From: Bacilli bacterium
Lineage (GTDB): Bacteria; Bacillota_I; Bacilli_A; ML615J-28; CAG-698
Length of the DNA: 39,131 nucleotides
Assembly (NCBI GenBank): GCA_028693535.1
Contig: JAQUVC010000002.1
Span: 1 to 39,131, forward strand
Reading direction: 5' to 3'
The notes below the pieces were generated by a model. That model had not been told where the DNA came from and ran no database searches. It saw only the letters and a program-made list of their open reading frames with translations. Below are positions 7,615 through 34,468 of the stretch, one piece after another. The number at the start of each line of letters is the position of its first letter. The stretch's first letter is position 1. A program made the position numbers and the translations under genes.

Positions 7615-8318
7615 TATTTTTGTTGTCTCCTTATTTCATAAATCATAATTCCCGCGCTCACAGAAGCATTTAAAGAATTAATTTTCCCTAACATAGGTAT
7701 TTCAACAAGAAAATCGCATTCTTCCTTCACAAGCCGAGAGATTCCTTTTCCTTCTGAGCCAATGACCAAAACAATTGGCATATCATACTTAATATCCCAC
7801 ATGCTACTACTTTTTTGGCTTTTTTCGGCACCAACAATCCAGTACCCCTTCTCTTTTAACTGTTTTAGGGTCTGCGTTAGATTAACCACTTCAACAACTT
7901 TTATGTATTCGATTGCTCCAGCTGATACTTTTGCTACAGTATTATTTAGCTTTACACTTCTATTTTTGGGAAGAATTACTCCATCAACATCTGCAGCTTC
8001 GCAAGTCCTAAGAATTGCTCCTAAATTATGGGGATCTTCTAAGCCATCAAGGGCGATAATCAACGAAGTTTTTTGAGTATTAACGACCTCAGATAATTGA
8101 TAGTACTGATAATCTTTTACCATAGCTACAACTCCTTGATGAAGTCCCGATACCATTTTATCCATTTCAGTGGAACTAATTATTTTATATTGCAAACGAA
8201 ATTGCTTCGCTAGTGCAATAAATTCAGTGTTTTTATCAAGAATATAAATTTCTTCTATTCTTTCAGGATTACTAAATGCTTCTTTTACAACATTTTTACC
8301 GAAAATATACTCACTCAT
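7614..8318 (-). CDS. rlmB: 23S rRNA (guanosine-2'-O)-methyltransferase, TrmH/SpoU family (RlmB/YacO-like)
   Basis: ORF 7614-8333 starts at a TTG. The ATG at 8318 (MSEYIFGKN) has a GAGGAAG SD. SpoU motifs LDGLEDPHNLGAILRT, VIGSEGKGIS, INSLNASVSAGI. Syntenic with mrnC-rlmB. Confidence 0.88.
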   Translation of the reverse strand: MSEYIFGKNVVKEAFSNPERIEEIYILDKNTEFIALAKQFRLQYKIISSTEMDKMVSGLHQGVVAMVKDYQYYQLSEVVNTQKTSLIIALDGLEDPHNLGAILRTCEAADVDGVILPKNRSVKLNNTVAKVSAGAIEYIKVVEVVNLTQTLKQLKEKGYWIVGAEKSQKSSSMWDIKYDMPIVLVIGSEGKGISRLVKEECDFLVEIPMLGKINSLNASVSAGIMIYEIRRQQK

Positions 8319-10191: not shown

Positions 10192-11601
10192 TTATTGGTT
10201 TCTTAGTCGCTTAGGAATGACGATAATAAACTTTGTTCCTTTTGGTTCATTATGTTCGACCTGTATTTTTCCCATATGGGCTTCAACAATTGTTTTTGCA
10301 ATTGCTAGTCCAAGTCCATTACCACCTGTTTCACGACTACGCGCTTTATCTTCACGATAGAATCGTTCAAAAATATGTTTTTTAGTTTCTTCACTAATTC
10401 CGATACCCGTATCAGCTATTTCTAAATGAACATCATTATTGATTAATGTCAATGTGATCGTTATCTTATCTTTTTCATTGGTATATCTTAGCGCATTGTC
10501 GAGAATGATAATTAACAGTTGTGTCATTTTATTGCGATCTACCAACGCACTGACTTCTTCTAATTTCAATACAAATCCTTTTCTTTGTAGCTCTGCTGTT
10601 TCTTTAAATATTTCTGAAGTTTCTTTTACAACTTCTGTCAAGTTAACATTCTCTAACTGAATCAGATCACGATAATTATCACTTTTTGCTAGTTGTAATA
10701 AATCAGTTGTCAATTTGTTCAGCCGTGCAACTTCTTTTAGTGATATTGCAATGTCCTCAGAGACGTCATACACAGTCAAATTGGATTTGGTAAGTGTATT
10801 TTCTAATTTGCTTTGTACAATGGCTAGTGGGGTTCTTAATTCGTGAGAGGCATCACTAACAAAAGCTATTTGTTTGTTCAATGTCTCAATAATTGGACGC
10901 ATTGCTGTAATACTTAAAATGATGCTTGCCACAGCACCCGCTAGAATCATAAGGATTGCTGAAATAATATATATTTTCACAATCTGATCCCGTGAATTCA
11001 CTTCACCATTAACCATTACTAACACCTTAGCATATTTTACCAAAGGAACATCTTCATTAAACATCGAAAATCCTCGTGTCATGAATGTATATTCTTGAGT
11101 TCCAGTTGTTACTGTTTCAAACTCCACAAAGTGATCAAGATTATTAACATCAATATTGAAGATGCTATTTTGCTCAGCAGTGGCAATTGCACTGATGTAT
11201 TCATCCCACAATTCTTGGTCAAAGGAATCCCATGGCCCTAATAACCCTTCATTAATACGCGAAAAGCGATCATAATCATGAATTACATAGGATAAAAGAT
11301 TGCTAGAATAATAACGAAACACTTCATCATTGGTATAAAAAATCATCATAATTCGTACATTATTGTTGTTTGCAACAATCAAACGATCACTTTCAGCAGA
11401 ATACTCAAGACTATCTTTGATATTTTCTTCAGCAGCAAGAATATCTTTTTTAATATCATTAAAAAAAGTATTATTGATTGAAGAAATAGCAAGTACCCCT
11501 AGCAAGATAAAAATAGCAAAAAAAGCAATTAAGTTAAATAATATTAACTCTCCATATTGCCTTTTAATAAAGTCTTTGGCGAAATTATTCTTCTTTTTCA
11601 C
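10192..11601 (-). CDS. Sensor histidine kinase (HisKA + HATPase_c) with ~170-aa extracytoplasmic domain
   Basis: 469 aa. Two TM helices (about residues 20-42 and 205-227). H-box SHELRTPL, N-box DNALRYT, G-boxes DTGIGI and GGNGLGLAI. GTG start overlaps the regulator gene by 17 nt. Confidence 0.9.
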   Translation of the reverse strand: MKKKNNFAKDFIKRQYGELILFNLIAFFAIFILLGVLAISSINNTFFNDIKKDILAAEENIKDSLEYSAESDRLIVANNNNVRIMMIFYTNDEVFRYYSSNLLSYVIHDYDRFSRINEGLLGPWDSFDQELWDEYISAIATAEQNSIFNIDVNNLDHFVEFETVTTGTQEYTFMTRGFSMFNEDVPLVKYAKVLVMVNGEVNSRDQIVKIYIISAILMILAGAVASIILSITAMRPIIETLNKQIAFVSDASHELRTPLAIVQSKLENTLTKSNLTVYDVSEDIAISLKEVARLNKLTTDLLQLAKSDNYRDLIQLENVNLTEVVKETSEIFKETAELQRKGFVLKLEEVSALVDRNKMTQLLIIILDNALRYTNEKDKITITLTLINNDVHLEIADTGIGISEETKKHIFERFYREDKARSRETGGNGLGLAIAKTIVEAHMGKIQVEHNEPKGTKFIIVIPKRLRNQ

Positions 11602-12259
11602 TCCACATATAACCTACATTTCTGATAGTTTTTAGGTAACCATTGTAATCATATTCTTTTAGTATTTTCCGCAAATTAGAAACATAAACTTCAACAACAC
11701 TCCAAACAGTATCAGAATCAAAGCCCCAAACACGATTAAATAATTGTTCTTTGGGAATAATAATTTCTTTATTACGAACCAAATATTCTAAAATATCATA
11801 CATTTTACCAAATATTTCACATTTTTTGCCATAAATACTAACAGCTTTGTGAATGACATCAAACTTCATATCTTTAAATACTAATTGCAATCCCTGAAAA
11901 TTGTTATTATAACGGCGTAACAAGGCTTCCGTACGCGCTAATAGCTCATCACGATAGAAAGGCTTGGTGATATAATCATCTGCACCTAGTCTTAATCCTT
12001 TTACTTTATCATTAACACTATCTCTTGCTGTTAGGATTAATACGGGACAATTACTGAATTGTCTTATTTTACTTAAAACTGTAAAACCATCAACATAAGG
12101 AAGCATAATATCGAGAATAATCAAATCATATATATCTTGTTCTGCTTGAAACAATGCTTCTTCACCATCATAAACAGCATCAACTTCAGCTAAGTTTTTT
12201 AACATTTCACAAATGCTTTTATTTAAATTAGGGTCATCTTCCACAACCAATATCTTCAT
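11585..12259 (-). CDS. OmpR-family response regulator
   Basis: ORF to 12289. MKILVVEDD start at 12259 is preceded by a GAGGTGG SD. Receiver Asp in LIILDIMLP. Winged-helix C-terminus (LKTIRNVGYMW). Confidence 0.92.
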   Translation of the reverse strand: MKILVVEDDPNLNKSICEMLKNLAEVDAVYDGEEALFQAEQDIYDLIILDIMLPYVDGFTVLSKIRQFSNCPVLILTARDSVNDKVKGLRLGADDYITKPFYRDELLARTEALLRRYNNNFQGLQLVFKDMKFDVIHKAVSIYGKKCEIFGKMYDILEYLVRNKEIIIPKEQLFNRVWGFDSDTVWSVVEVYVSNLRKILKEYDYNGYLKTIRNVGYMWSEKEE

Positions 12260-13461: not shown

Positions 13462-14247
13462 TTATGGTTGCATTGCACCAAATAAAACAAGCCACGCAAG
13501 AATTGATTTTGCAACTAGGCTTAAAACGATGTACGTTCTTTCGCCATATAAATAATCTTTCCATTTCCCTAATTTTAGGTATTGGGCGATCATATTGAAT
13601 GGGAAAGCATTGAATGCCAAGAAATAAGAAGCTAAAATTGCCCAAGCAAACCATGGTGCATTAGCTATTTCTCCAGAGCCAAAAATATAAAGACCAATAA
13701 CAATCCAAGGTGTGATACCAGCAATGGAACCCCAAGCAAATGGTCCCCATTTTACCTTACCTTTTTCAAATCCTGAATTAAATTGCTCCATTAGTAAACC
13801 AAATAAATTCATACAAACATTCAAAACAAAGATTAATAGCAGTGAAGCAATATCTACTACACCAAACAATACCGATGTTAAGACAATCATAATTGATGAA
13901 CTTAAAGCATACTCGAACCAACGAAATTTATTGATTCCTTTTTTTAAATCTTCAACATAAACATTAAATATTTTGTTTGGTATAGAAATAATAAAATGCG
14001 CTAACGCTGAAAGAAACAAAAATAAAGCAACAAGAATACCAAATGGTAAAATAAATAATTCTCTTCCTTGTAAGACCAATCCTTCACCTAAGACAAATGT
14101 TAGGTAATTTTGTACAATCATCGGTTGAAATGCTGCTAGTTTGTCAATTACAAAGTAAGCCAAGAAAACCATAGCAATGCCTTGAACCAAATGGAATCCA
14201 CCCATAATTAAATTAAAACGGCGTAATTTTAGAAATTCTTTATCCAT
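13462..14247 (-). CDS. Heliorhodopsin (7-TM retinal-binding protein)
   Basis: 261 aa, about 7 hydrophobic helices. Motifs match heliorhodopsin 48C12 as recalled: GGFHLVQ, LSALAHF, FRWFEYALSSSIMIVL, IAGITPWI, GERTYIVLSLVAKSILAW. Lys247 (AAA, 13507-13509) is at the Schiff-base position and Glu112 at the counterion position. Confidence 0.9.
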   Translation of the reverse strand: MDKEFLKLRRFNLIMGGFHLVQGIAMVFLAYFVIDKLAAFQPMIVQNYLTFVLGEGLVLQGRELFILPFGILVALFLFLSALAHFIISIPNKIFNVYVEDLKKGINKFRWFEYALSSSIMIVLTSVLFGVVDIASLLLIFVLNVCMNLFGLLMEQFNSGFEKGKVKWGPFAWGSIAGITPWIVIGLYIFGSGEIANAPWFAWAILASYFLAFNAFPFNMIAQYLKLGKWKDYLYGERTYIVLSLVAKSILAWLVLFGAMQP

Positions 14248-18635: not shown

Positions 18636-21600
18636 TTATTTCACAACATAAATCTTTTCTAATATCATTTGTTTTTTATTATCGCGAACATCTACTTTGC
18701 CTTCACCAACATAAACAATTCCATACCCCAATAGCGCTGAATATTCTTGATAAACTCTTGGAAACACCACCGCATCAATGGTATCGGCATCATCATTGAT
18801 TTCTAGGAAAGCCATTTCTTCATTCTTCTTTGTTTTAATCACCTTAATATGGTCAATAGTAAATAAAATCTTTTGTTGTTGTCCTATTGTTAAATCAGAA
18901 ATAGAAATTGTTTTATATTTTTCCCTGATATTCGGATATTTCATGAAAACATCATATTTTAAATTAAACCCTAAATGTTCTTTTTCTAACCGAGAAATTT
19001 CTTCAAAACTATATTCCTCGTCATTAAAGATATGTTCTGATAATTTATCTTTTAAAATCGCCCCATAATTTGCTAGTTCCAAACTAGTTTCATACTCCAG
19101 CACCATTTGTTTGCGTGGGATTTTAAAGCAATCAAGTGCTCCAGCATAAATCATACTTTCAACAATTCGCTTATTTAGAATATCCTTTGTTCTACCAATA
19201 AACTCATCATAATTTTGATAACAACCATTTTTTTCCCTTTCTTCCAAAAGAGAATTTAAAGTCAAAGCTCCCAAATTCATGATTCCTAAAAAAGAATAAT
19301 AAATTCCTTCTTCCGTAGCAACAAAATCAGCACCGCTATGGTTGATAGAAGGTAAAAAAACCTTAATATTTCGACGATTACAGTTCTTTATATATGACTT
19401 TATCAGGCGAATACTTCCTATTGTGTTGCTCATTAATACCGCCATAAAATGCTTATAGTAGTGGCATTTTAAGTATCCCATTTGATAAGCAACTAGGGCA
19501 TAAGCTACCGAATGCGATTTATTAAACCCATAGTTTGCAAACTTGACAATATTATCATAAACCTCATTACTAATTGCTAAAGTATGCCCTTGCTTTGTTG
19601 CTTTACGAACGAATCGTTCCCGCTCAGCCACCAAAACACTTGCTGTTTTCTTTGTGATTGCTCGCCTTAGAATGTCAGCTTGACCAGCGGTATAGCCAGC
19701 AAACTTCTGAGCAATTTGAATAATTTGTTCTTGATATACAATAATACCATATGTAGATTTTAGAATATCCCGCAAATCAGGATGAAGATATTCAATTCTT
19801 TCTTGGCCAAACTTTCGTTTTACAAAAGAAGGTATCATGTCTTTTGGCCCTGGTCGAAACAACGCAATTGCATTAACAATGTCATTAAACTCGCTCGTTT
19901 TCATCATCATTAATGTCTTTCGCATACCTCCTGATTCTAGTTGAAACAACCCATCCGTATCTCCACTAGCAATCATTTTATATGTTTCTTTATCATCAAG
20001 TGGAATCGCATTGACACTCATTTTACTACCCGTCTTGGCAATGACTTCATCAATAATAGTAAGATTTCTAATTCCTAGAAAATCTATTTTTACCAAACCA
20101 ATCTTTTCCAAATCGCTCGCTTCATATTGTGTTTGAGAAAGACCATTGATACCATCCTGTAAAGGAGTGTAGTTTACCAAATCAACATCAGCCATAATAA
20201 TTCCTGCTGCATGAGTAGAAATATGTCGTGGTAAGCCTTCTAGTTTATAAACTAATGAAACTAGATAATGTATCTTTTCATTCTCTTTAATCATCTTTTG
20301 TAATAACGGATTGTCATTGGCAATTTCTGCCATTGTTTCAAAGCGATTACCAGCATATTTTAAAATCTCATTCAGATATAAATCGCTCATCTTCATCACT
20401 CTAGCAATATCACGAATTGCCAAACGGACACCAAATGTTCCAAATGTTGAAATATGAGCTACCTTCTCACTACCATATCGTCTACCAACATATTCAATGA
20501 CTTCATCACGGCGATTATCAGGAAAATCCATGTCAATATCAGGCATGGAAATACGTTCAGGATTCAAAAAACGCTCAAAGAGCAAGTCATATTCCAGCGG
20601 ATCAATATCGGTGATTCCTAGTGAATAGGAAACCAAAGAGCTCGGTGCTGACCCCCTACCAGGGCCAACTAGAATTCCTGCTTTCTTCGCATATTTAACA
20701 AAATCATACACAATGATAAAGTAATCGCTAAAACCCATTTTAATAATAACATCGAGTTCATACAATAATCGTTGACGATATTTTTCATAGTCAAAAGTTT
20801 TCCCTTTTAACCTTTTATTAAGACCAATCATCGCCAATTCCTTGAGATAATGATCTGTATTCTCTATATCTCCTGAATATACTGGCATTTTATAACGACC
20901 AAATTCAATCGCAACATTACATTTATTGGCAATATGAATTGTTTCTTTCACTAGTTGTGGATACTTACGAAATAAGTCTTTAGCCATAGTGGGAGAAATA
21001 AAGGTTTGGTTCATTTCTTTTTCTGTGTATGGATAATCATTTAATGATAAACCTATGCACTTCAACATTTTATATGCTTCAAAATCATCATGATCAAGAT
21101 AACTTGTTTTATTAATTGCTACCACTTGAAGTTGTAGCGAAGTAACATAATCAATCAAATCACTTGCCATATTTTTCATATCAATTGTTTGCAAATCGAT
21201 TCCCAAATAAATATCCGAAAAATACGTTTGATACTTACCAATCATCATCTTTGCTTCTTCGAAACTACCTTCTCGGTACAGCTTTACAATTTCGTTTTCA
21301 TCACTGGGAATGACTACCAAACAATTGCGAGCATTGCTACTAATGGTTTTTAAATCAATACCATCTTTGCTTTTTTTCGCAAGTGTTGCAATCTTAAGAA
21401 GCGATTGATAACCTTGATTATCTTTTGCATATAACAATAAAGAATTATAAAAGTTATACGTAGATACCACAGTTACATTGATACCGATAATTGGTTTAAT
21501 ACCATTTTCTTGGCACATCATATAGAACTTCAAAGCTCCATACATGTTATCCAAATCAGTGATGGCTAACGCTTGATAACCATACTCTTTGGCTTTTGCA

Positions 21601-21695
21601 ATTAACGATACCAATCTATTCGGTGATGACAATAAAGAATACTCGGTTTCTGTATACAAATTAACATATTTACTTGTTTCTTCTTGCTTCAACAT
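18636..21695 (-). CDS. dnaE: DNA polymerase III alpha subunit (DnaE type)
   Basis: 1019 aa. PHP region, palm motif PDIDMDF, FNKSHSVAYA, C-terminal OB fold. GAGGTG SD. Confidence 0.95.
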   Translation of the reverse strand: MLKQEETSKYVNLYTETEYSLLSSPNRLVSLIAKAKEYGYQALAITDLDNMYGALKFYMMCQENGIKPIIGINVTVVSTYNFYNSLLLYAKDNQGYQSLLKIATLAKKSKDGIDLKTISSNARNCLVVIPSDENEIVKLYREGSFEEAKMMIGKYQTYFSDIYLGIDLQTIDMKNMASDLIDYVTSLQLQVVAINKTSYLDHDDFEAYKMLKCIGLSLNDYPYTEKEMNQTFISPTMAKDLFRKYPQLVKETIHIANKCNVAIEFGRYKMPVYSGDIENTDHYLKELAMIGLNKRLKGKTFDYEKYRQRLLYELDVIIKMGFSDYFIIVYDFVKYAKKAGILVGPGRGSAPSSLVSYSLGITDIDPLEYDLLFERFLNPERISMPDIDMDFPDNRRDEVIEYVGRRYGSEKVAHISTFGTFGVRLAIRDIARVMKMSDLYLNEILKYAGNRFETMAEIANDNPLLQKMIKENEKIHYLVSLVYKLEGLPRHISTHAAGIIMADVDLVNYTPLQDGINGLSQTQYEASDLEKIGLVKIDFLGIRNLTIIDEVIAKTGSKMSVNAIPLDDKETYKMIASGDTDGLFQLESGGMRKTLMMMKTSEFNDIVNAIALFRPGPKDMIPSFVKRKFGQERIEYLHPDLRDILKSTYGIIVYQEQIIQIAQKFAGYTAGQADILRRAITKKTASVLVAERERFVRKATKQGHTLAISNEVYDNIVKFANYGFNKSHSVAYALVAYQMGYLKCHYYKHFMAVLMSNTIGSIRLIKSYIKNCNRRNIKVFLPSINHSGADFVATEEGIYYSFLGIMNLGALTLNSLLEEREKNGCYQNYDEFIGRTKDILNKRIVESMIYAGALDCFKIPRKQMVLEYETSLELANYGAILKDKLSEHIFNDEEYSFEEISRLEKEHLGFNLKYDVFMKYPNIREKYKTISISDLTIGQQQKILFTIDHIKVIKTKKNEEMAFLEINDDADTIDAVVFPRVYQEYSALLGYGIVYVGEGKVDVRDNKKQMILEKIYVVK

Positions 21696-21779
21696 CCAAT
21701 CACCTCAAAATGCATCGCGCATTAAGCTAATCTATCTATCTATAGTATAACATATTATCAAACTTTTTCCATTACAAAA

Positions 21780-23927
21780 TTAATTTTTGGTGTGTTTGAT
21801 TTTTCTAAAGCCATAGCCAACCCCTGTGCTAATAATCATAACACCTATACTCCATAGTAATAAATTGTGATTGTTGTTATTATTTTTTTGAAAAATAATT
21901 TTATCACCCATTTTTGCTGTAATCAGGGAGGTCTTGTTGAAACTATCTGTAAAAGCAAAGGAAAACTTTTCTAGACTATCACCAAAGCGGTTAATGGTAA
22001 TATGACCAATGGGAGTGTTATTCGCTTGCGCGATAAAAGTAAAATCAAGTAACTTTTGACGTTGATAATGAAGGCTACCAACATCATAAACAAGGTTCAC
22101 CATTGCTTGATATTCTTGATCTAATGCCAACCAAGGAAGCAATATCTCACTATCAGCAATTGGATATGACACAATTTCTTCCTTATCCTGATTCATTAAG
22201 GTGATTTCAAAATAACGAATCGTCTTGTCAGGATCTTGGAAACTAACACTCATCGTTGTATTAATATTGGTTAATTCAATCAAAGGAGCTTCCCTTATAA
22301 CCTTAACAATATAAGTAAATGATAAATCATGAGTGTCTGTATGATCAAGATTCCGATATGTCACTTTATTTATTGTTAATTGATGATTGCCATACGTATG
22401 AGGAGCAACAAGATTGATGACTAATTTATTCGTCGATTGATAATAAACAAAATCAGTTGTTTCTTGTCCATCAATGAAAAGTTTCTCAATCGCTTGAATT
22501 CCTGTAACTTCATAAATGAGTTTATATGCTTGTGAAGCATACACTTCAAAATCAGCACCATTATGCATATCCTCAACAAAAGCGATTTGTTTGCAAGAGA
22601 TGAAAAAACAGAATGTATTTATTTCACCATTGGCACCAACCAAATCCAACCTAACTTCTTTTTCTTCGTTCAAGGCATAATTGTTTAATATTTCATTGCC
22701 ATCAATATATGCTTTTCCAGTAAATAAAAGTTTATAGTTTATTGGATAAATACCACCATTTATTATATTCACTTCCAAAGGAACTTCAATTTCCTTTACA
22801 AGCGAAAACTCAATGCCAACTTTACTTTGATACCTTGTTGTTTGCTGATACTTCCCATAAATCTGAGGATTGTAAGCTGGGTCATATTTTTCTTCAACCA
22901 TCTCTGCTAAACCATAAAGCGTAGTCAACCTCTCTTCATCCCAATAAAAATCTAATAACCAAACTTTGTTTTGATGCAAATATAATATTCCTCTATTTGT
23001 GTATAAAAACATACCTTCATAGTAATCTTTATTTTGTGTTTCCCCGATGATTTCCATTTTTCCGAGATCAAACAAACGAATTTTTTCTGAGCTAATCAAT
23101 AAAAGCAAGCCGTTTTTCCCCATTTGCGTATAACAAAAGGTATCATTTAAATGAACTTTGTGAATGCTTTCTAAACTATCACTAAAATAACATAATTGAT
23201 GGTCAATCATCAAGCAAAGCATATTGTCATATAAACAATAGCTTTGAAAATGAACTACATCATTAATTGCAATGTCATTGATGATGCGCATTTGTGCATC
23301 TAGTACAGCAATCCCTAATACATTATTACCAATACCACTATAAGCAAAATCTCCACCCGATAGTGGATCTTTACGAAAGAATAAAAATGATCGATCACCA
23401 TCAATAATCAATCCCAACCCCACTTCATCCTTTGCTCCTCCTAAGGCATACGTGAAAATTTGATGGTCAGCGGTTATTTTAATAATCATAATATCTTTTA
23501 AAGCCAACTCTTGGCAATAACTGATAATTGTATGATCATAATTGGCTATTGATCCTAGAATATAGAAATCACCATCATCGGTAAAAAACTGATTGATTTC
23601 AATCATCGCATCTCTTATAACTAAAGTGTGATTAACTACCATACCATTCTGATTAAGCTCTAAGAAATAAAGTTCTGTCCCTTGAAAATAAATGATACCA
23701 AGATTATCAAGGTAGCGAACAATATGAGGATTCGTTATGTCATTAAGATCGTATTTCCAACCACTCCTATTTTCAATCAAATAGTTTTCTTCATCTTCTT
23801 TGATTAAACTTGTGATTCCATCACTCCAAATGATTTCTGCTTGTACTATTATCTCTTCTGTTATCATTCCCCAATTAGAATTATAAGTAAATATCATGCT
23901 TGCAAATAACAATGCGATTTTAATCAT
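21780..23927 (-). CDS. Hypothetical tail-anchored surface protein (paralogue B)
   Basis: ORF to 23969. The ATG at 23927 (MIKIALLFASMIF, signal-like) has an AAGGAGAAAG SD and overlaps the upstream stop by 8 nt. C-terminal TM LLLWSIGVMIISTGVGYGF plus RKIKHTKN. Shares the IEVP.-.NI.N...F.G..Y..G..I module with the upstream gene. No family recognised. Confidence 0.6.
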   Translation of the reverse strand: MIKIALLFASMIFTYNSNWGMITEEIIVQAEIIWSDGITSLIKEDEENYLIENRSGWKYDLNDITNPHIVRYLDNLGIIYFQGTELYFLELNQNGMVVNHTLVIRDAMIEINQFFTDDGDFYILGSIANYDHTIISYCQELALKDIMIIKITADHQIFTYALGGAKDEVGLGLIIDGDRSFLFFRKDPLSGGDFAYSGIGNNVLGIAVLDAQMRIINDIAINDVVHFQSYCLYDNMLCLMIDHQLCYFSDSLESIHKVHLNDTFCYTQMGKNGLLLLISSEKIRLFDLGKMEIIGETQNKDYYEGMFLYTNRGILYLHQNKVWLLDFYWDEERLTTLYGLAEMVEEKYDPAYNPQIYGKYQQTTRYQSKVGIEFSLVKEIEVPLEVNIINGGIYPINYKLLFTGKAYIDGNEILNNYALNEEKEVRLDLVGANGEINTFCFFISCKQIAFVEDMHNGADFEVYASQAYKLIYEVTGIQAIEKLFIDGQETTDFVYYQSTNKLVINLVAPHTYGNHQLTINKVTYRNLDHTDTHDLSFTYIVKVIREAPLIELTNINTTMSVSFQDPDKTIRYFEITLMNQDKEEIVSYPIADSEILLPWLALDQEYQAMVNLVYDVGSLHYQRQKLLDFTFIAQANNTPIGHITINRFGDSLEKFSFAFTDSFNKTSLITAKMGDKIIFQKNNNNNHNLLLWSIGVMIISTGVGYGFRKIKHTKN

Positions 23928-25746
23928 TTTTCTTTCTCCTTTGCGGAATAACCAAACCAATAGCAACACCTATAATGGCAATTGTTAAGAGAATATAAAT
24001 ATAGTACGATGATGAAGATTGCTTTTGTTCCTGATAACGAATGGTTATTTTATCTGTTTTTGGGGGACTCTCTACTTGATATTGTTGCTTAAAATCGATA
24101 TGCTCCATGATAGAAATATCAGTCATACCAAGCGATTTTTTCTTTACTGTGAATGTATAATATAGTGTTTTATCTACTCCTTGAAGTTCAAGTAAGTAAC
24201 TACCTTCTTGCCAACAAACGTAACCTGCATCAATTTTTTCACCATTTAAGTAGCCTATGCCATTAAAATCAAGAATCAAGCCACAATCATAGGTTTCTTT
24301 ATTTACAATATTTATTCTCACCGGCACCTCGATTACAGAAGGTAAAACAAAAGTATACTCTCCTAAGCTATACTCATATAAATTGGTTGTTTTTCCAAAT
24401 ATACTACCATTTTGATTGTTTGTTAGCGCCCTACTTGATAAATATAAGCCATTAAAAGATACCGACGCATCGTTTATTTTTATATGCAAATGGCTTTCCA
24501 AATAGGGTTGTTGGTAACCATTCCATTTTGTTAGACTCGAACAATAAATAATGTTGTTGATAAGATATACAGAAACAGGAATATCATTGTTTGTACTAGG
24601 CCTTTCTGTTTGATGAATCATTTGCCAATCACTCGAAAAAATTATAAATTTGTAAGCATAAGAATTCCCTTTTTTCATATTACAACAAATGGTAATGTAG
24701 TCCCCAATAGTAATTGCATAATCGTAGAATCTTCCTTCATCATAACTAAGTTTTAATTTGGTTTCATTCAACATATTGAGTTCCCAATCATAATAAGAAA
24801 ACATCAAACCATTATCCCAATAATCATGACTGATAATTGCTAACTTATCTTTTGTTATAACCAGCTCTGACTTCTTAAATCGATATTGATTATCTAAAGA
24901 AACATGATTTTGGTATTCTAAGCGGTAATCGTAGCTTACGATCGCACGGAACTCTCCGTCTTCATTTGCATTAGTAAAATAACCAGAACCAGCAAACTGC
25001 ATATAAATATAAAGTTTATCATTGTTCATTTGTGCTCCATATAACTGATTATTACCATCGTTTCCCAGCAAACTAACCTCGTGAACCTGAAAATTTTTCT
25101 TATTTACAAAGCCAACAACAACATTTTGGTTGTTTACATGATGAGAATAAAAATCGCCATCATTAGCGAAGGTAGTACCAACAAAATAATATCGATCTTG
25201 ATAGTTAAAAATACTATTTCCTTCACTAATATGATTCCCTCCTAATAAAATTTTGTCTTTTAAAACTCCATTGGTATTAAACTTTGCAATTACAATCATA
25301 TTCGCTTGCGTAATGGTTTCATAGTTACCAATTATAATAATATCCTCATCATCTATCAGGGCATCTTTAATCACACCATAGCCCCAGTCGATAAGAACTT
25401 CTTCCCAAATGAGTTCCTCGTTTTCATAATAAGCAAGATAAGGAAACTCTGGTAAGTTTTCCGTTCGAAAAGGATGATTACCTGTATCCACTCTTCCAAT
25501 TAGATAATAACTGTTATCACTGATACCAATGGTTTTTGTGATATGATAATCATAATTATGTTTCAACAAGAATAAATCCTTACTAAATTCAATTCCCTTT
25601 CTATATTCATCCTCATCAATTTTAGTAATCACTTCCTCATCATCAAAATATGGTACAACATCTTCTTCATCTGCAGTCGTAAATACCTCATTATGACAAT
25701 AAAATGGTGAAAATATTAGCATTAAGTTCAACAATAATAGTTTCAT
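23920..25746 (-). CDS. Hypothetical tail-anchored surface protein (paralogue A)
   Basis: 608 aa. Signal peptide MKLLLLNLMLIFSPFY. Repetitive beta-rich ectodomain (YYLIGR, IIIGNYE, YYFVGTTFANDGDFYS, propeller-repeat-like). C-terminal TM YIYILLTIAIIGVAIGLVI plus PQRRKKND. AGGAGGAAG SD. Confidence 0.6.
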   Translation of the reverse strand: MKLLLLNLMLIFSPFYCHNEVFTTADEEDVVPYFDDEEVITKIDEDEYRKGIEFSKDLFLLKHNYDYHITKTIGISDNSYYLIGRVDTGNHPFRTENLPEFPYLAYYENEELIWEEVLIDWGYGVIKDALIDDEDIIIIGNYETITQANMIVIAKFNTNGVLKDKILLGGNHISEGNSIFNYQDRYYFVGTTFANDGDFYSHHVNNQNVVVGFVNKKNFQVHEVSLLGNDGNNQLYGAQMNNDKLYIYMQFAGSGYFTNANEDGEFRAIVSYDYRLEYQNHVSLDNQYRFKKSELVITKDKLAIISHDYWDNGLMFSYYDWELNMLNETKLKLSYDEGRFYDYAITIGDYITICCNMKKGNSYAYKFIIFSSDWQMIHQTERPSTNNDIPVSVYLINNIIYCSSLTKWNGYQQPYLESHLHIKINDASVSFNGLYLSSRALTNNQNGSIFGKTTNLYEYSLGEYTFVLPSVIEVPVRINIVNKETYDCGLILDFNGIGYLNGEKIDAGYVCWQEGSYLLELQGVDKTLYYTFTVKKKSLGMTDISIMEHIDFKQQYQVESPPKTDKITIRYQEQKQSSSSYYIYILLTIAIIGVAIGLVIPQRRKKND

Positions 25747-25806
25747 ATTTCTTCCTCCTATATCTATATATTAGGAAAAAGGCTTCGCATTTCTTTTTAT
25801 CAATAT

Positions 25807-25836
25807 AAAAAAAGTACCAAACAAATGTTTGGTACC
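25807..25836 (-). terminator. Rho-independent terminator after ackA
   Basis: Minus strand GTACCAAAC-ATTT-GTTTGGTAC (25835-25814) followed by TTTTTTTAT. Confidence 0.85.
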
Positions 25837-25848
25837 TGAGTATTCTAT

Positions 25849-27039
25849 TTAGTTTTGTTCTGTTAAGCGAACCACATCGCGAGCAATCATCAATTCTTCC
25901 TTTGTTGGAATTAAGAATGCTTTGATAGGGGAATCTTTTGTTGTTAGTTCTGTTATTTCACCACGCGCTTTGTTGGCTTCTGGGTCAAGTTTGATACCCA
26001 ACACTTTTAGCCTATTGATGATTTGTTCCCGACAACGTGAGCTATTTTCACCAATACCAGCCGTAAAGACAATGGCATCTAGTCCTTCCATTAAAATATA
26101 ATAGCTTCCAATATAATCAGCAATGCGCTTATATTGAATGTCCAAAGCAAGACGACATCTCTCATTGATATCTAAGCATTCTTCTAAATCACGAGAATCG
26201 TTAGAAACTCCAGAAACACCCAAATATCCTGATTTTCGGTTTAAAATAAGTAATAATTCAGAAATACTATACCCTTCTTTTTTAGCCATATACTCTAAAA
26301 CTGTAGGATCAATATTGCCACTTCTTGTTCCCATCGGAATTCCTTCCAGTGGTGTTAAGCCCATTGAAGTATCAACGCAAATACCACCCTTAACAGCAGC
26401 GATTGAAGCGCCATTACCCAAATGGCATGTAATAATTTTAGTTTCAGCAATTGGTTTTTTTAGTAATTCAGCGGCAATATGTGCGACATATTTATGGCTT
26501 GTTCCATGAGCCCCATATTTTCTTATTTTATATTTTGTATACCATTCATAAGGAAGAGCATACATATATGTATCTGGTTGCATCGTTTGATGGAACGAAG
26601 TATCAAAGACAACGACATTAGGAACACCAGGTAATACCTTTAAAAAGGCTTTTATACCAATTAAGTGAGCTGGATTGTGTAACGGAGCCAAATCACATAG
26701 TTCTTCAATTTTAGCAATGACATCATCATCAACGATTGCTGAATCTTGAAAATACCAACCACCTTGGACAATACGATGACCAACGCCACCAATTTCATTT
26801 AAATTTTTTACGATTTGGCGGTCTACCAAATCATCTAAAACTTTTTTTACTGCCTCAGCGTGATTTTTAATTGGTAACACTATCTTTTCTTTATTTCCAT
26901 TAAACTTAATCGTATAATAAGCATCCTTTAACCCAATTCTTTCAACAATTCCTTCGGTTATGATGACTTCATCTGGCATTTCCAATAATTGAAATTTCAG
27001 TGATGAACTTCCGGCATTAACTGCCATAATTTTTTTCAT
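25849..27039 (-). CDS. ackA: Acetate kinase
   Basis: 396 aa. VNAGSSSLKFQL, GHRIVQGG, TCHLGNGASI, FTAGIGENS motifs. Confidence 0.97.
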   Translation of the reverse strand: MKKIMAVNAGSSSLKFQLLEMPDEVIITEGIVERIGLKDAYYTIKFNGNKEKIVLPIKNHAEAVKKVLDDLVDRQIVKNLNEIGGVGHRIVQGGWYFQDSAIVDDDVIAKIEELCDLAPLHNPAHLIGIKAFLKVLPGVPNVVVFDTSFHQTMQPDTYMYALPYEWYTKYKIRKYGAHGTSHKYVAHIAAELLKKPIAETKIITCHLGNGASIAAVKGGICVDTSMGLTPLEGIPMGTRSGNIDPTVLEYMAKKEGYSISELLLILNRKSGYLGVSGVSNDSRDLEECLDINERCRLALDIQYKRIADYIGSYYILMEGLDAIVFTAGIGENSSRCREQIINRLKVLGIKLDPEANKARGEITELTTKDSPIKAFLIPTKEELMIARDVVRLTEQN

Positions 27040-28577: not shown

Positions 28578-28874
28578 ATGAATCGTTTTATAATCAAACT
28601 TATTCAAAAATATCAGGCATCAAAACCAGAAGATAGTCGCAAATGGTGTAAATACCACCCAACATGTTCAAATTATGCGATTGGTGTTTATCAAAAGTTT
28701 AATTTTTTTAAAGCTTCTCTATTAGCAGGGTGGCGAATTTTGCGGTGCAATCCTTTTTCTAAAGGAGGATACGACCCTGTTCCTCTTACTAAAAAAGAAA
28801 AAAGAGAATTAAAAAATTCTCTTAAAGAAAGCAGCAATCTTTCCCCACAAAGTGATAAAAAAATTGACAACTAA
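28578..28874 (+). CDS. yidD: Membrane protein insertion efficiency factor YidD
   Basis: 98 aa. CKYHPTCSNYA and LRCNPFSKGGYDPVP signature. The only plus-strand gene. The 28-aa Lys/Ser-rich tail overlaps the convergent gene by 66 nt. Confidence 0.9.
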   Translation: MNRFIIKLIQKYQASKPEDSRKWCKYHPTCSNYAIGVYQKFNFFKASLLAGWRILRCNPFSKGGYDPVPLTKKEKRELKNSLKESSNLSPQSDKKIDN

Positions 28875-30440
28875 ATCAATAAAATCAACCTCAACTGATT
28901 CTTGAACAAGATTTTCAAAAACATTCACCTGTAGTTCCAACTCTTCTCCTTCAACATCCAAAAGCACTTTGTATGTTCCAGGAGTATTTTTATTTTCACT
29001 ATACTCATCTTCGATTACACTATAATTTAGATTTTGTTTAATCGTCTGTGTTCGTTCGAGAAATTGAACAAAATCACTAATTTCCATATTATTATTGCTG
29101 ATATCAATATTAATTATTTGTGTATCAATCATAAAAATTGGACTTGTTTCATCCATTACAACAACGATTATTTCTTTTCTAGCGGTGTTCATACGATTAT
29201 CACTGACAATTAATCCAATTTTAAATGTACCGACACGAGTCGGAGCATGAGAATAATAATCATATTCAACGGTAACGCGACTCGTAATAATACCATCATC
29301 ATTATCTTCAACAACAATGTTCTCAAGAATATCTTGAAGCGTTAACCTTTGATTATTCGCAATTTCATAACGAAACGTTCCACTGAAGACTGGGGCAATG
29401 TTATCAACATAACTTACAATGATTGTAACCGGATAATCACAACTATTATTTGATGTATCTGAAACTGTAAAGATGATGCTGTACGTGCCCGGAGTCGTGG
29501 CATTGCTCGTATATGCATCAGATTTAACTGTAATATAAGTGGTAAGATTACCATCATAATTATCTTCGGCACTTAAGGCACTTTTGATATCACTCAAAGA
29601 TAATGGCGTATATTGATTTGTACTATAACTATTTTCCCCACTGATTACTGGGGAAGCCATATCTTTTACCCAGATAAAAACAGATAGTGTGGCAGTATTG
29701 CCACTACTGTCAACGACAAAATAAACAATTTCATATTGACCTATAGTATTCATATTAGCAAGATATTCATTCTTGGTAATGGTAATCTGTGTCGTAATAT
29801 CACCATCATGATCATCCATTGCTTTGATTGCAGAAGTGATTGTCGCCATACTTACTGGATTATCACAACTTGTAATATACAAACCATGATTGTTACTAAT
29901 GACAGGGCTATAGTCTAGGCTTGGCCCTTGATAGCGTAATTGAAGCGCTGATAAATTAGAATATGTATTATAATCGATTGCTTCAATCAAAGCATAGTTG
30001 TTTTCAACCTCGTATAATCCTAGATTAGCACCATAATCTTCCATAACATCAAATTCTAAATCGATGTATTTGGCATTACTGGGAGTAACAATTTGATAGT
30101 ATTTATCTTCTCCTCTCGATACTGCTGTTGCTTGCAACGTGCTAATCATTTGTTTATTTGCATCATATGCTTTTGTACGAACAGTTAATATTTCTGCTTC
30201 TTGATAAGCAAAAATAGTTAACATATACGTTACACTTGGTTTGATACGAATATAGTTACGACATGTAACCATTCCATAATTAATAGGATTGCTAACAGTG
30301 TAATCAAAATTTTCATCTTCTAAATAATTATATCCATTAGGAAGGAATTCCCAATTAGGTAAGTTATTATCTGCTTGAACGTTCTGAGGGATTAATACCA
30401 ATAGTAAAATCCCAACAATGACCAATATGGTTTTTTTCAT
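28809..30440 (-). CDS. Tail-anchored surface protein with four DUF5011-type Ig-like repeats
   Basis: ORF to 30467. MKKTILVIVGILLLVLIPQNVQA start at 30440 follows a GGAGAAGGG SD. Repeats of D..DG.(I/L)T..(I/V)T......T.G.Y.(I/V)...V.D..(G/N)N...... (three full, one degenerate). Hydrophobic C-terminus FIDLVVNFFITLWGKIAAFF plus KRIF. Confidence 0.7.
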   Translation of the reverse strand: MKKTILVIVGILLLVLIPQNVQADNNLPNWEFLPNGYNYLEDENFDYTVSNPINYGMVTCRNYIRIKPSVTYMLTIFAYQEAEILTVRTKAYDANKQMISTLQATAVSRGEDKYYQIVTPSNAKYIDLEFDVMEDYGANLGLYEVENNYALIEAIDYNTYSNLSALQLRYQGPSLDYSPVISNNHGLYITSCDNPVSMATITSAIKAMDDHDGDITTQITITKNEYLANMNTIGQYEIVYFVVDSSGNTATLSVFIWVKDMASPVISGENSYSTNQYTPLSLSDIKSALSAEDNYDGNLTTYITVKSDAYTSNATTPGTYSIIFTVSDTSNNSCDYPVTIIVSYVDNIAPVFSGTFRYEIANNQRLTLQDILENIVVEDNDDGIITSRVTVEYDYYSHAPTRVGTFKIGLIVSDNRMNTARKEIIVVVMDETSPIFMIDTQIINIDISNNNMEISDFVQFLERTQTIKQNLNYSVIEDEYSENKNTPGTYKVLLDVEGEELELQVNVFENLVQESVEVDFIDLVVNFFITLWGKIAAFFKRIF

Positions 30441-30535
30441 ACCCTTCTCCTTTTCTTTCGGAGACACTTTTCACACGTTAATTAATTATAGCAAGAAAAA
30501 AAACATTAATAAAGGAAATTATATTTCTTTCAAAC

Positions 30536-32287: not shown

Positions 32288-34468
32288 TTAATATTTCTTG
32301 CGACGAATAAAGATTAAAGCTAGCGGAATTAGTAAATACCACAAACTCATTCCTGCTTGACAACCCTTTGTTTCAACTGGAATTTCAGGTTCCTCAATCG
32401 GCTCTTCTGGTTCCTCGATTGGCTCTTCAGGCTCCTCTACTTTATTAACTTTTATAGTTAGTGTGTCGATTGCTTCTTCATGACCAACCACTGTTACTGT
32501 GACTGTTGCTTCGCCCTCTTTAATGGCGATTATATTTTGCCCTTCAATACGAACAACGCTACTATCACTCGATGAGAATTCTAATGTAACTTCTTCGTTT
32601 GGTGATACCGTTACTACTAATGGTTCACTCTCACCAGCTTCTAATTCAATAGTATCTACAGAAAAATAAACTTCAATTGGAATGTAAGTTTCCCCATAAA
32701 TTAGCGATGTTGAAAATAAAACCTTATCGTTACTATCTAAAGCTTGAACTATAATATTATTTTCTTGTTTGATATTCAAACTTGATAATGATGCTTCTTT
32801 TGCTGTAGGACCGACTTCAGTTAGAAGTGTATCATTGGCAAAAATAGCAATTTTTGTTAGCATTTCATTATCTATTTGACTATCCCAAACCAACTTGTCA
32901 CCAATAATTCTAACATTTTCAATTTTTCCAAAAGCGGCATTAGGGTTAATCAATTCTAGTTCTTTTGTAGCAATTTGCCCATCACGAAAATACACATTAA
33001 TTGTATAATTCTTACGATAATCGCTTGCTTTCAAGTTAGGAATGATAAGAGACGTTTGGTTGTCTAAAGGTCTAAAACTACTAATACTTTCTGTACCTTC
33101 TAGCAATTCTATTTTATAAGCTTTCGCAAAGAATTCATTTGGATAAACCAATTTTGATTGTGTGAAATTTTCACTGACTTCAGTTTTTATATCTTTCATA
33201 CTAGCAACAACATCAAAATTGGCCATTTTTGCTGGAATAGCAATTTGATCTAATATAGTTCCTGCTTCATTGTAGGTTTTAACCATCAAATTTTCAGTAG
33301 AAACTGTAATTCCCATCGCTACACTGGTATTACTAATCTTTTTCGCCACATAGACATCAGTAGATAAATAAGATTCCGCTTCTAAACGATCCCCAATCGC
33401 ACTTCCTGTAATATAAATTGCTCCTTTTTTACTATCGGTACCATTCGTTCCATTATAGATGCGGTTACTTCTTGTATATACATGGTCATGACCCGTTAAA
33501 ACTAGATCAACTCCATACTTGTCAATAATTGGTTGTAAACTTTTCATATAACTACCAACTTCATTTCCTGCATAGTAAAAATAATGATGAAATAAAATTG
33601 TATACTGACTTGGATTATTTTCAAGGACATTCTCAAGCCATTCTTTTTGGTTGGTTTCATATTCATCAGGTTGACTTGCTAAACGCCACGCTTCTGAATC
33701 AAGGGAGATAAATAAGACATTCCCATATTGAAAGAAATAGCTACCATTTTCTACCCCTGCAGCGCCATTGTCGGGATTGTTGGAATACATATCAAAGTAT
33801 TTTCGACTATCAGCATATAATTCTGCTTTACGATTATAGTATTCATGATTTCCTGGGGTACTGGCAATCATGTATTTAGAAAACATCGATAGTGTATAAT
33901 AACTTGTCCATTGATCACGAACGCTACCATAAGCAGTCATATCCCCACCTGTCACAATAAACTTCAAATTACGATATTTGCTTTCAATCGTATTAATAAG
34001 GTTTTGTGCTGAATTATAACGAGATGGAGTACTGGGGTACACATGCACATCAGAAAAATACATAAAGGTAAAAGCACTTGTTCCTGATGTTGTAAAACCA
34101 TATACTGCAGAAAAATTCGTCTTGCCAACACGATAGATATATTCAGTATCACTTGTCAGATTGGTTAAGGTAGCATCACACTTATAATCAGTGATATTGG
34201 CATATATTCCATCATCATAATAAGTCACCGCATTACACTCACCCAATACTTGCTTTGCTGAAGCAAAACCAGTATCCTCTTTTGTTGTGTATTCAACAAA
34301 AGTTCCTAAAATAGTGGAGTGCCAAGCGACATTCATTTCTTTTGATGTATCTTCACCAGGATTGGTGACAATTAAAAATGCATCGGGCTCATCCGCACGA
34401 ACCACCAATTGGGATGAAAAAAGAAAAAATAGTCCAAAAATTAATAATACACAAATAAACTTTTTCAT
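32288..34468 (-). CDS. Secreted, tail-anchored purple-acid-phosphatase-like metallophosphoesterase with Big_2 domain
   Basis: 726 aa. Signal peptide ...SQLVVRADE. PAP N-terminal FN3-like region (MNVAWHS...TEYIYRVG). Metallophos motifs FSDVH, GGDMTAYG, GNHEY, GHDHVY. Big_2-like IELEAGESEPLVVTVSP...GEATVTVTVVG. EEPEEPI repeats. C-terminal TM plus RRKKY. Confidence 0.85.
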   Translation of the reverse strand: MKKFICVLLIFGLFFLFSSQLVVRADEPDAFLIVTNPGEDTSKEMNVAWHSTILGTFVEYTTKEDTGFASAKQVLGECNAVTYYDDGIYANITDYKCDATLTNLTSDTEYIYRVGKTNFSAVYGFTTSGTSAFTFMYFSDVHVYPSTPSRYNSAQNLINTIESKYRNLKFIVTGGDMTAYGSVRDQWTSYYTLSMFSKYMIASTPGNHEYYNRKAELYADSRKYFDMYSNNPDNGAAGVENGSYFFQYGNVLFISLDSEAWRLASQPDEYETNQKEWLENVLENNPSQYTILFHHYFYYAGNEVGSYMKSLQPIIDKYGVDLVLTGHDHVYTRSNRIYNGTNGTDSKKGAIYITGSAIGDRLEAESYLSTDVYVAKKISNTSVAMGITVSTENLMVKTYNEAGTILDQIAIPAKMANFDVVASMKDIKTEVSENFTQSKLVYPNEFFAKAYKIELLEGTESISSFRPLDNQTSLIIPNLKASDYRKNYTINVYFRDGQIATKELELINPNAAFGKIENVRIIGDKLVWDSQIDNEMLTKIAIFANDTLLTEVGPTAKEASLSSLNIKQENNIIVQALDSNDKVLFSTSLIYGETYIPIEVYFSVDTIELEAGESEPLVVTVSPNEEVTLEFSSSDSSVVRIEGQNIIAIKEGEATVTVTVVGHEEAIDTLTIKVNKVEEPEEPIEEPEEPIEEPEIPVETKGCQAGMSLWYLLIPLALIFIRRKKY
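32388..32437. repeat. Imperfect 21-nt tandem repeat (2.4 copies) encoding EEPEEPI linker units
   Basis: Plus strand ggttcctcaatcggctcttct / ggttcctcgattggctcttca / ggctcctc. In frame within the phosphoesterase gene, just before the C-terminal anchor. Confidence 0.85.

Follow-up and report, generated by a model that had tools for sequence, protein, structure and literature searches.

The A-B gene pair and its transcription unit

We analyzed a 39,131-nucleotide (nt) stretch of DNA from a Bacilli bacterium (contig JAQUVC010000002.1), referred to as a whole as the window, and describe here two adjacent minus-strand genes, A and B, that lie in it between ackA and dnaE. Gene A (23920-25746, minus strand) encodes a protein of 608 amino acids (aa) from an ATG preceded by TAGGAGG, and gene B (21780-23927, minus strand) a protein of 715 aa counted from its ATG. 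A mechanical list of open reading frames (ORFs) starts B at an upstream GTG at 23969, giving 729 aa; we prefer the 715-aa start because all B orthologues begin at an equivalent M-x-K with the same Shine-Dalgarno (SD) sequence. An earlier first-pass annotation, made from the sequence alone, had called the two products giant, a label that does not suit proteins of only 608 and 715 aa.

The two genes meet in a compact junction (23920-23941, minus strand) made of an SD, an 8-nt spacer, the ATG of B and the TAA stop of A. The SD of B, AAGGAG at 23941-23936, sits within A, 8 nt 5' of the B ATG (23927-23925), which overlaps the last codons of A and its stop (TAA, 23922-23920). Read directly from the window, the overlap is the 8-nt string ATGATTAA; the first-pass annotation gave the right length and a nine-letter string, AATGATTAA, that is one base too long. 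The junction is kept in relatives, with overlaps of 8, 8, 4, 8, 22, 13, 14 and 4 nt or a 5-nt gap, and the translational coupling that had been proposed is thus supported by the overlap and the internal SD, which are conserved in relatives.

Upstream of A lies ackA (25849-27039, minus strand), followed by a strong intrinsic terminator (25812-25837, minus strand; an 11-bp stem and a T-run) that marks the upstream boundary of the A-B unit and has equivalents after ackA in L001, L007, L006, L016 and L018. Downstream of B, across an 84-nt spacer, lies dnaE (18636-21695, minus strand), whose promoter (21744-21771, minus strand) carries an extended -10 (TGTTATACT; TGGAAA-16-TATACT with TG) and marks the downstream boundary. 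The sequence TGnTATACT precedes dnaE in nine of the ten lineages compared (the window, L001, L004, L006, L007, L012, L013, L017 and L018), the tenth, L011, having a plain TATAAT; it persists where DnaE is only about 45-50% identical. A clear intrinsic terminator stands right after B in L006, L011, L012, L013 and L018, and probably in L017, whereas none was found after B in the window's own subclade (the window, L001 and L004), and no terminator-like hairpin was found in the 84-nt spacer of the window. The remark that no terminator separates the pair from dnaE is therefore true of the window, while the tie to dnaE that it hinted at is not supported, given the conserved promoter of dnaE itself and the terminator after B in most of the more distant lineages examined.

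The terminator of ackA, the terminators after B in many lineages and the separate dnaE promoter define A and B as a self-contained bicistronic unit. On the same grounds (dnaE promoter, terminators after B) we rejected a tie to dnaE, or co-transcription with it, as a general feature, and a functional tie to ackA was rejected because ackA has its own terminator in most lineages. That the window has no terminator ahead of dnaE is a local trait, which may permit read-through and is not a conserved link. An Rfam search of 21500-26000 gave no credible RNA element, its single match lying below threshold (23 bits vs 86).

Pairing, paralogy and fusion of A and B

Thirteen loci were examined closely; they stand for 12 distinct lineages (the window, L001, L004, L006/L010, L007, L011, L012, L013, L016, L017 and L018). 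In 12 of 12 lineages a B-type gene comes right after an A-type one, with an overlap of 4-22 nt or, in L012, a 5-nt gap, and no lineage without A or without B was found among them; co-occurrence, which had been suggested as a check, thus returned the pair always together and always with A first. The gene that directly follows the pair is dnaE in all of them except L016, where a Peptidase_M78 (ImmA/IrrE-like) gene and a 189-aa gene (10708-11879 of that locus) stand between B and dnaE, the sole interruption of this adjacency among the loci examined. Where the upstream flank is present the order is a ytxK-like methyltransferase gene, ackA, A and B; as exceptions, L011 has a different upstream gene and the L012 contig ends.

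The clade is deep, since DnaE identity across lineages falls to 44-50%; for A and B the figure drops to about 20-25%. When the window is compared with L004, A is 37% and B 31% identical, against 81% for AckA, 64% for DnaE and 87% for PfkA; at closer range, the housekeeping proteins of the window are 86-92% identical to those of an Acholeplasmataceae metagenome-assembled genome (MAG; L007). In the lineages examined A and B are single-copy, strictly syntenic and set among housekeeping genes. Judged from these identities, the pair evolves far faster than its neighbors, yet is never lost, split or moved.

The proposal that A and B are distantly paralogous proved statistically sound. BLASTP aligns A446-573 with B353-489 at 28% identity (E = 1e-7), and hhalign pairs shallow alignments of the two families with 98.3% probability (E = 1.4e-14) over 384 collinear columns, rising to 99.8% (E = 1.4e-27) over 521 columns with broader alignments of 16 A-type and 53 B-type sequences. 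The 521-column alignment runs collinearly from the signal through the whole N-terminal domain to the first immunoglobulin (Ig)-like module. By these comparisons A and B are true, if distant, paralogues, and because the paralogy is significant in both the BLASTP and the profile-profile comparisons, we accept as genuine the two shared motifs picked out in the first-pass annotation (an IEVP... module and LGG...GDF). The IEVP..N..N...Y......F.G.GYLNG module is the best-conserved 30-residue stretch in both, and in both that window falls in the same homologous Ig-like module (A 481-510; B 387-416); LGG...GDF is the best-conserved propeller blade of the family.

Further evidence for joint function comes from gene fusions. 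Three representatives of about 1,360-1,386 aa, from two or three lineages, have a C-terminal half that matches the B profile and an A-type N-terminal half. One of them, P0069 (1,386 aa), is found as an identical sequence in three independent assemblies, in the exact ackA-dnaE slot, and is therefore not an assembly artefact. The other two, P0077 and P0081, are only 37% identical over 1,373 residues, indicating that the fusion has survived a long period of divergence. P0069 shares 24-25% identity with P0077/P0081, and its B half is closer to unfused proteins; at this distance the fusion may have arisen twice. Each fusion junction consists of the TM helix (transmembrane helix) of A, a basic loop of 5-12 residues and the signal-like segment of B with an AxA-like site, a layout that would place both ectodomains outside the cell and so preserve the topology of the separate proteins. 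In the fused-gene lineage L013 the 54-nt spacer between ackA and the fusion gene (within 7946-8001) is nearly all hairpin and T-run, and the GAGGTG SD of the fusion gene falls in the 3' arm of this hairpin, an overlap that might be a regulatory arrangement.

The coupling, the invariant pairing and the fusions provide what we consider unusually strong genomic evidence that A and B work as a unit. An alternative is that they are independent surface proteins, each with its own ligands, which never form a complex and are neighbors through tandem duplication. Paralogy and adjacency are the expected products of such a duplication, contact between A and B is something we infer, and a mirror-tree comparison of A and B controlling for DnaE gave a partial r of 0.08 (p = 0.55) with saturated identities. 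Against independence, all 12 lineages keep the adjacency, the A-B order and the overlap of start and stop even where identity drops to about 20%, no lineage examined is without either gene, and stable in-frame fusions exist; we therefore regard it as unlikely.

Membrane topology and domain architecture

A and B share one layout: an N-terminal signal-like segment, an all-beta ectodomain, a single C-terminal TM helix and a short basic tail. Hydropathy profiles of about 150 relatives place a hydrophobic segment at the N-terminus and a TM helix at the C-terminus of essentially all full-length proteins. The tail that follows the helix averages 10.8 residues with a net charge of +5.2 in B-type proteins (n = 108) and 6.7 residues with +3.2 in A-type proteins, and distant orthologues carry canonical cleavable signals (MKK, a hydrophobic core, then VFA, VYA or INA). 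Models and relatives thus agree with the signal, beta-rich ectodomain, single C-terminal helix and basic tail already described for the pair. The term tail-anchored, used alongside that description, is imprecise: because an N-terminal signal is present, A and B are predicted to be type I membrane proteins, with the N-terminus outside and the C-terminus inside, and not strictly tail-anchored.

The TM helix of A-type proteins is enriched in GxxxG (10 of 13 sequences vs 2.4 +/- 1.3 in shuffles). We rejected lipoprotein anchoring, as the cysteine in the signal region of A is not conserved, and also a sortase-type anchor, as no conserved motif precedes the TM helix: neither LPXTG nor any other conserved motif was found there in the family alignments A1 and A2, and Gram_pos_anchor appeared in just one of eight members scanned (E = 0.19).

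Two other surface proteins in the window use the same anchoring style. One, a 726-aa protein (32288-34468, minus strand) with a purple-acid-phosphatase N-terminal domain, a metallophosphoesterase domain and Big_2 domains, ends in KGCQAGMSLWYLLIPLALIFIRRKKY, which weakly resembles the Synerg-CTERM sorting domain (E = 0.13, under the cut-off). The string WY[LF]LIP, which lies inside the anchor of some distant A orthologues (L012, L018), is common to those anchors and the C-terminus of the 726-aa protein, and the clade may share one C-terminal anchoring or sorting signal.

Protein A begins with a signal-like segment (aa 1-18) and an acidic stretch, followed by a beta-propeller region (about aa 58-440; 24427-25575, minus strand), of which only aa 120-250 are confidently modelled and which includes LGG..SEG...F.....YYFVG.TFANDGDF. 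A single Ig-like module (about aa 446-535; 24142-24411, minus strand), homologous to the first such module of B, holds the stretch where the A family is most conserved (aa 481-510, N..YD.G..L.FNG.GYLN..I..GY); beyond it come a low-confidence stalk, a TM helix (aa 580-600, with GVAIG) and the tail PQRRKKND. In B, the signal-like segment (aa 1-20) leads into a propeller (about aa 38-345; 22893-23816, minus strand) of about seven four-stranded blades, as read from the strand pattern of the AlphaFold2 model; its conserved blade (aa 160-200, LGG..(E)..G....R-K-D-P-L-S-G-G-D-F) holds the invariant K186. Three Ig-like beta-sandwich domains follow (about aa 346-445, 460-548 and 557-681), and then a TM helix (about aa 687-707) and the tail RKIKHTKN. 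The first sandwich (22593-22892, minus strand), homologous to the module of A, contains the stretch where the B family is most conserved (aa 387-416, N..G.IYP.GY.L.F.G.A.LNG..I.NNY) and four of the five invariant residues of the family, G358, N387, Y394 and F402.

AlphaFold2 models of both proteins were built with shallow alignments. The B model has a mean predicted local distance difference test (pLDDT) score of 66.5, with domains at 70-87, and comprises an N-terminal helix corresponding to the signal, about 28 short strands arranged as about seven blades, three sandwich domains set apart by pLDDT dips and a C-terminal helix (aa 688-714). The A model is all-beta as far as about aa 535, its blades are confident at aa 120-250, and a helix occupies aa 580-606; it is poor overall and supports no more than an all-beta fold with propeller-like blades. 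A beta-propeller is thus predicted in both proteins, with moderate model confidence for B and poor confidence for A.

Foldseek searches with the two models, one of the checks proposed for the ectodomains, returned propellers and no specific family. Matches of B in the PDB include WD40 UTPs, DDB1, BamB, PorZ, the BT4673 sensor ectodomain (3ott), plexin and Sevenless; for A the top match is CylK, with neuraminidases, the B12-binding lipoprotein BT2095 and kelch proteins also present. Because TM-scores are about 0.2, these searches yield a fold class only. Together with the modelled blades they bear out the earlier description of the N-terminal halves as propeller-like.

Sequence searches were consistent with the absence of a named family noted in the first-pass annotation, as no match in Pfam, NCBIfam or the PDB reaches threshold. 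Against Pfam-A, A matches no family and B has matches only at E ≥ 0.095, below the cut-off. In NCBIfam, A scores 9.7 bits against a cut-off of 76.5 for delta_60_rpt (aa 133-161, E = 0.73) and B has no match. Pfam scans of eight and of 53 family members gave nothing recurrent, PDB profile searches with alignments A1 and A2 gave nothing useful, and a broad B profile found only the CylK propeller in the PDB (E = 1e-4). The same profile matches seven consecutive blades of P0151 (E = 1.7e-12), a protein that itself matches the SBBP LipL53 family of Leptospira, NF047494 (E = 1e-41), and delta-60 TIGR02608 (E = 5e-9); in hhalign, a single blade pairs the B profile with P0151 at E = 3e-4 and 38% probability. 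The link of B to SBBP/delta-60 is therefore transitive, through P0151, with direct matches below the cut-off, and the N-terminal domains are best described as degenerate SBBP/delta-60-type propellers, a matter of resemblance and not of membership.

Word-seeded searches recovered just six relatives of A and eight of B, with no further relatives when repeated with the 53-sequence alignment; the true size of the family was seen only by an exhaustive hidden Markov model search, which returned, for clusters at 50% identity, 290 representatives at E ≤ 1e-3, including 96 at E ≤ 1e-30, almost all of 700-750 aa and matching end to end. A orthologues were found at 37-99% identity. Named members are hypothetical proteins of MAGs labelled 'Acholeplasmataceae bacterium', 'Mollicutes bacterium Phil14' and 'Bacilli bacterium', and the family taxonomy rests on few such labels; two look-ups of 20 cluster representatives gave names for just two clusters, each a hypothetical protein, one from an Acholeplasmataceae and one from a Bacilli bacterium. 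No publication describing the family was found in the literature library searched. A and B belong to a family that is undescribed and specific to Acholeplasma-like bacteria; its folds are common ones, and the pair does not amount to a categorically new system.

These data also bear on whether the propellers are catalytic. A and B could be a membrane-anchored extracellular propeller enzyme, perhaps with an accessory subunit, acting as a glycosidase, lyase, sialidase or CylK-like transferase on environmental polymers: the propeller of CylK is the best PDB sequence match of the B profile (E = 1e-4) and CylK heads the Foldseek matches of A, neuraminidases are among those matches too, and one distant A orthologue has a weak GH43 match (E = 0.0033). 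All of these matches, however, are sub-threshold and at the level of the propeller fold, with a root-mean-square deviation (rmsd) above 18 Å, and no member carries a CAZy-type Pfam domain in the scans of eight and 53 members. Moreover, only K186, G358, N387, Y394 and F402 are invariant in the 53-sequence B alignment, in which no conserved Asp, Glu, His or Ser was found, and the propeller is the least conserved domain while the Ig-like module is the most conserved. This pattern makes a catalytic role unlikely, and the enzyme interpretation as a whole appears very improbable to us.

A candidate surface complex and its known counterparts

We propose that A and B, products of an ancient duplication, form an obligate heteromeric, non-enzymatic surface-binding complex, a reading that we would give an even chance of being right. 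Each protein would be exported through its N-terminal Sec-type signal and anchored by its single C-terminal helix, whose short basic tail would lie in the cytoplasm, displaying a degenerate SBBP/delta-60-type propeller on an Ig-like stalk of one domain in A and three in B. Translational coupling would deliver the two together, and their assembly into one heteromeric complex at the surface would probably rest on the homologous Ig-like module, with help from the GxxxG-bearing helix of A. An interface at this module is proposed because it is the most conserved element of both proteins, and a pseudo-symmetric Ig contact would be expected because a paralogous heterodimer derived from a homodimer would keep it. 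The complex could then act as a binding device, an adhesin or receptor, in which the fast-evolving propellers are the exposed ligand-binding heads.

Several points weigh against this proposal. We infer the physical association of A and B, including any direct contact, as well as its interface and the surface-binding function, and the functional assignment is drawn by analogy, the family having no characterized member and no known cultured host. No GxxxG enrichment was found in the TM helix of B-type proteins (14 of 108 sequences vs 10.7 expected), and the mirror-tree comparison, with its saturated identities, adds nothing to the species signal. The A model is poor (pLDDT 46), and the Foldseek matches of both models are generic propellers with TM-scores of about 0.2 and rmsd of 13-83 Å. 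An enzyme, CylK, is among the best PDB matches, both in sequence and in fold. Finally, single-copy, strictly syntenic core genes are atypical of adhesins, which are usually patchy and multi-copy.

This last point is also the main argument for a different role, that of a housekeeping envelope or sensory module: the pair, single-copy and strictly syntenic among housekeeping genes in every lineage examined, could be a core scaffold for membrane, shape or division in wall-less cells, or a ligand-sensing co-receptor that signals through its TM helices to a kinase, much like the propeller and Y_Y_Y sensor domains of hybrid two-component systems. The BT4673 sensor ectodomain among the Foldseek matches and a weak Y_Y_Y match in one A orthologue (E = 0.028) point the same way. 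Cytoplasmic tails of only about 6-11 basic residues, however, leave no signaling domain, and no kinase or division gene is linked to the pair in any locus examined; the two-component pair of the window is some 10 kb distant and does not occur in the examined flanks of related loci. Such fast divergence would also be unusual for core machinery, and we judge a housekeeping or sensory role distinctly unlikely.

For the proposed surface complex, the nearest working analogy is Nap, the adhesion complex of the wall-less Mycoplasma pneumoniae group, a surface adhesin that acts only as a heteromer (PMC7280502; PMC7560827). Its two proteins (P1 and P40/P90 in M. pneumoniae; P140 and P110 in M. genitalium) come from neighboring genes in a single operon and are paralogues at a very great distance, the N-domains of P1 and P40/P90 being 12% identical. 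In each, a signal precedes a large N-terminal domain that folds as a seven-bladed beta-propeller; a small C-domain close to the membrane, a single C-terminal TM helix bearing GxxxG motifs and a cytoplasmic tail complete the protein (PMC7280502; PMC7560827). A and B are likewise predicted to be a paralogous type I propeller pair from adjacent genes of one operon. This paired architecture alone is not sufficient for membership of the Nap family: Nap chains (P1, P110, P140) were found neither in PDB profile searches (A1, A2, A3; E ≤ 10) nor among the best 50 Foldseek matches of A or B, and no adhesin Pfam domain was found in A, B or the relatives scanned (8; 53). Unlike the Nap proteins, A and B are half the size, show no sign of a 'crown' and have Ig-like stalks; their tails of only 6-11 residues leave no room for cytoskeletal coupling; their hosts appear to be free-living or environmental; and they are syntenic core genes. 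The likeness to Nap is thus one of analogy and not of family membership.

Other known proteins share parts of the architecture. With SBBP, delta-60 and CylK propellers, A and B have in common the blade signature GG...(D/E)....(hydrophobic strand)..G.(T/K).S..GDF, although only one or two of their blades keep the motif; the known SBBP/delta-60 members are lipoproteins or soluble or secreted proteins, and are not known as type I membrane proteins on Ig stalks or as paralogous pairs. Integrin alpha subunits have a signal, a beta-propeller, Ig-like domains, a single TM helix and a short basic tail, and function as part of heterodimers. A and B share their propeller, Ig-like, TM domain order and the short basic tail. 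The sensor BT4673 of Bacteroides hybrid two-component systems carries its propellers and a Y_Y_Y Ig-like domain before a TM segment, and the order read from our models matches this layout. A and B have no cytoplasmic signaling domain, and they differ from integrins in that the partner is a paralogue and not an unrelated beta subunit; no FG-GAP, VCBS or integrin Pfam match was found in A, B or 53 relatives, and no Reg_prop or significant Y_Y_Y match in A, B or the relatives scanned. Amp and VmpA of phytoplasmas and other Mollicutes reach a wall-less surface by means of a cleavable signal at the N-terminus and stay there through a TM anchor at the C-terminus. The predicted anchoring strategy of A and B is the same, whereas the ectodomains of Amp and VmpA are unrelated, consisting of repeats or coiled regions, and these proteins have neither a propeller nor a paralogous partner.

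Digesters, sediments and guts commonly harbor uncultured Acholeplasma-like bacteria. In this clade the A-B pair seems to be universal, a surface feature that is single-copy, evolves fast and lacks database annotation. The fixed pairing and the fusions predict a two-subunit complex, which is testable. Should that complex exist, it would offer a handle on adhesion or nutrient capture, a comparison point for the medically important Nap adhesins and a marker locus for the clade; should it fail, A and B would be one more lineage-specific propeller/Ig surface family. A bolder extension, which we consider a long shot, is that A-B is a clade-defining obligate heterodimeric surface machine of Acholeplasma-grade wall-less bacteria and the free-living counterpart, conceivably even the distant evolutionary root, of the Nap-type adhesin pairs with which pathogenic mycoplasmas attach. 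Two-subunit propeller adhesins on C-terminal helices would then be an old solution to wall-less life and not an invention of the pneumoniae group.

Some further features of these genomes were recorded. Across positions 1-39131, ORFs of at least 100 aa are nearly all on the minus strand, the few on the plus strand lying inside longer minus-strand ORFs, and GC skew is negative in every 1-kb window; together these indicate strong co-orientation on one replication arm. Two contigs titled 'uncultured Bacteroidales bacterium', those of L008 (CAYPLR010000003.1) and L011 (CAZFAM010000031.1), carry the Acholeplasma-type locus, and L008 shares its contig with L001, whose DnaE is 87% identical to that of the window; these labels look wrong. 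A plus-strand yidD (28578-28874) is convergent with a gene for a 543-552-aa DUF5011/Bact_surface_Ig-like surface protein (28809-30467, minus strand); the 3' ends overlap by 66 nt, so that a hydrophobic C-terminal tail is encoded opposite yidD, and the same convergent overlap occurs in L001, L004 and L006. About 7 kb downstream of the pair, the window, from an Acholeplasma-like genome, encodes a full-length heliorhodopsin (13462-14247, minus strand; Pfam PF18761, E = 6.7e-88), and L001 has a heliorhodopsin gene at the same position.

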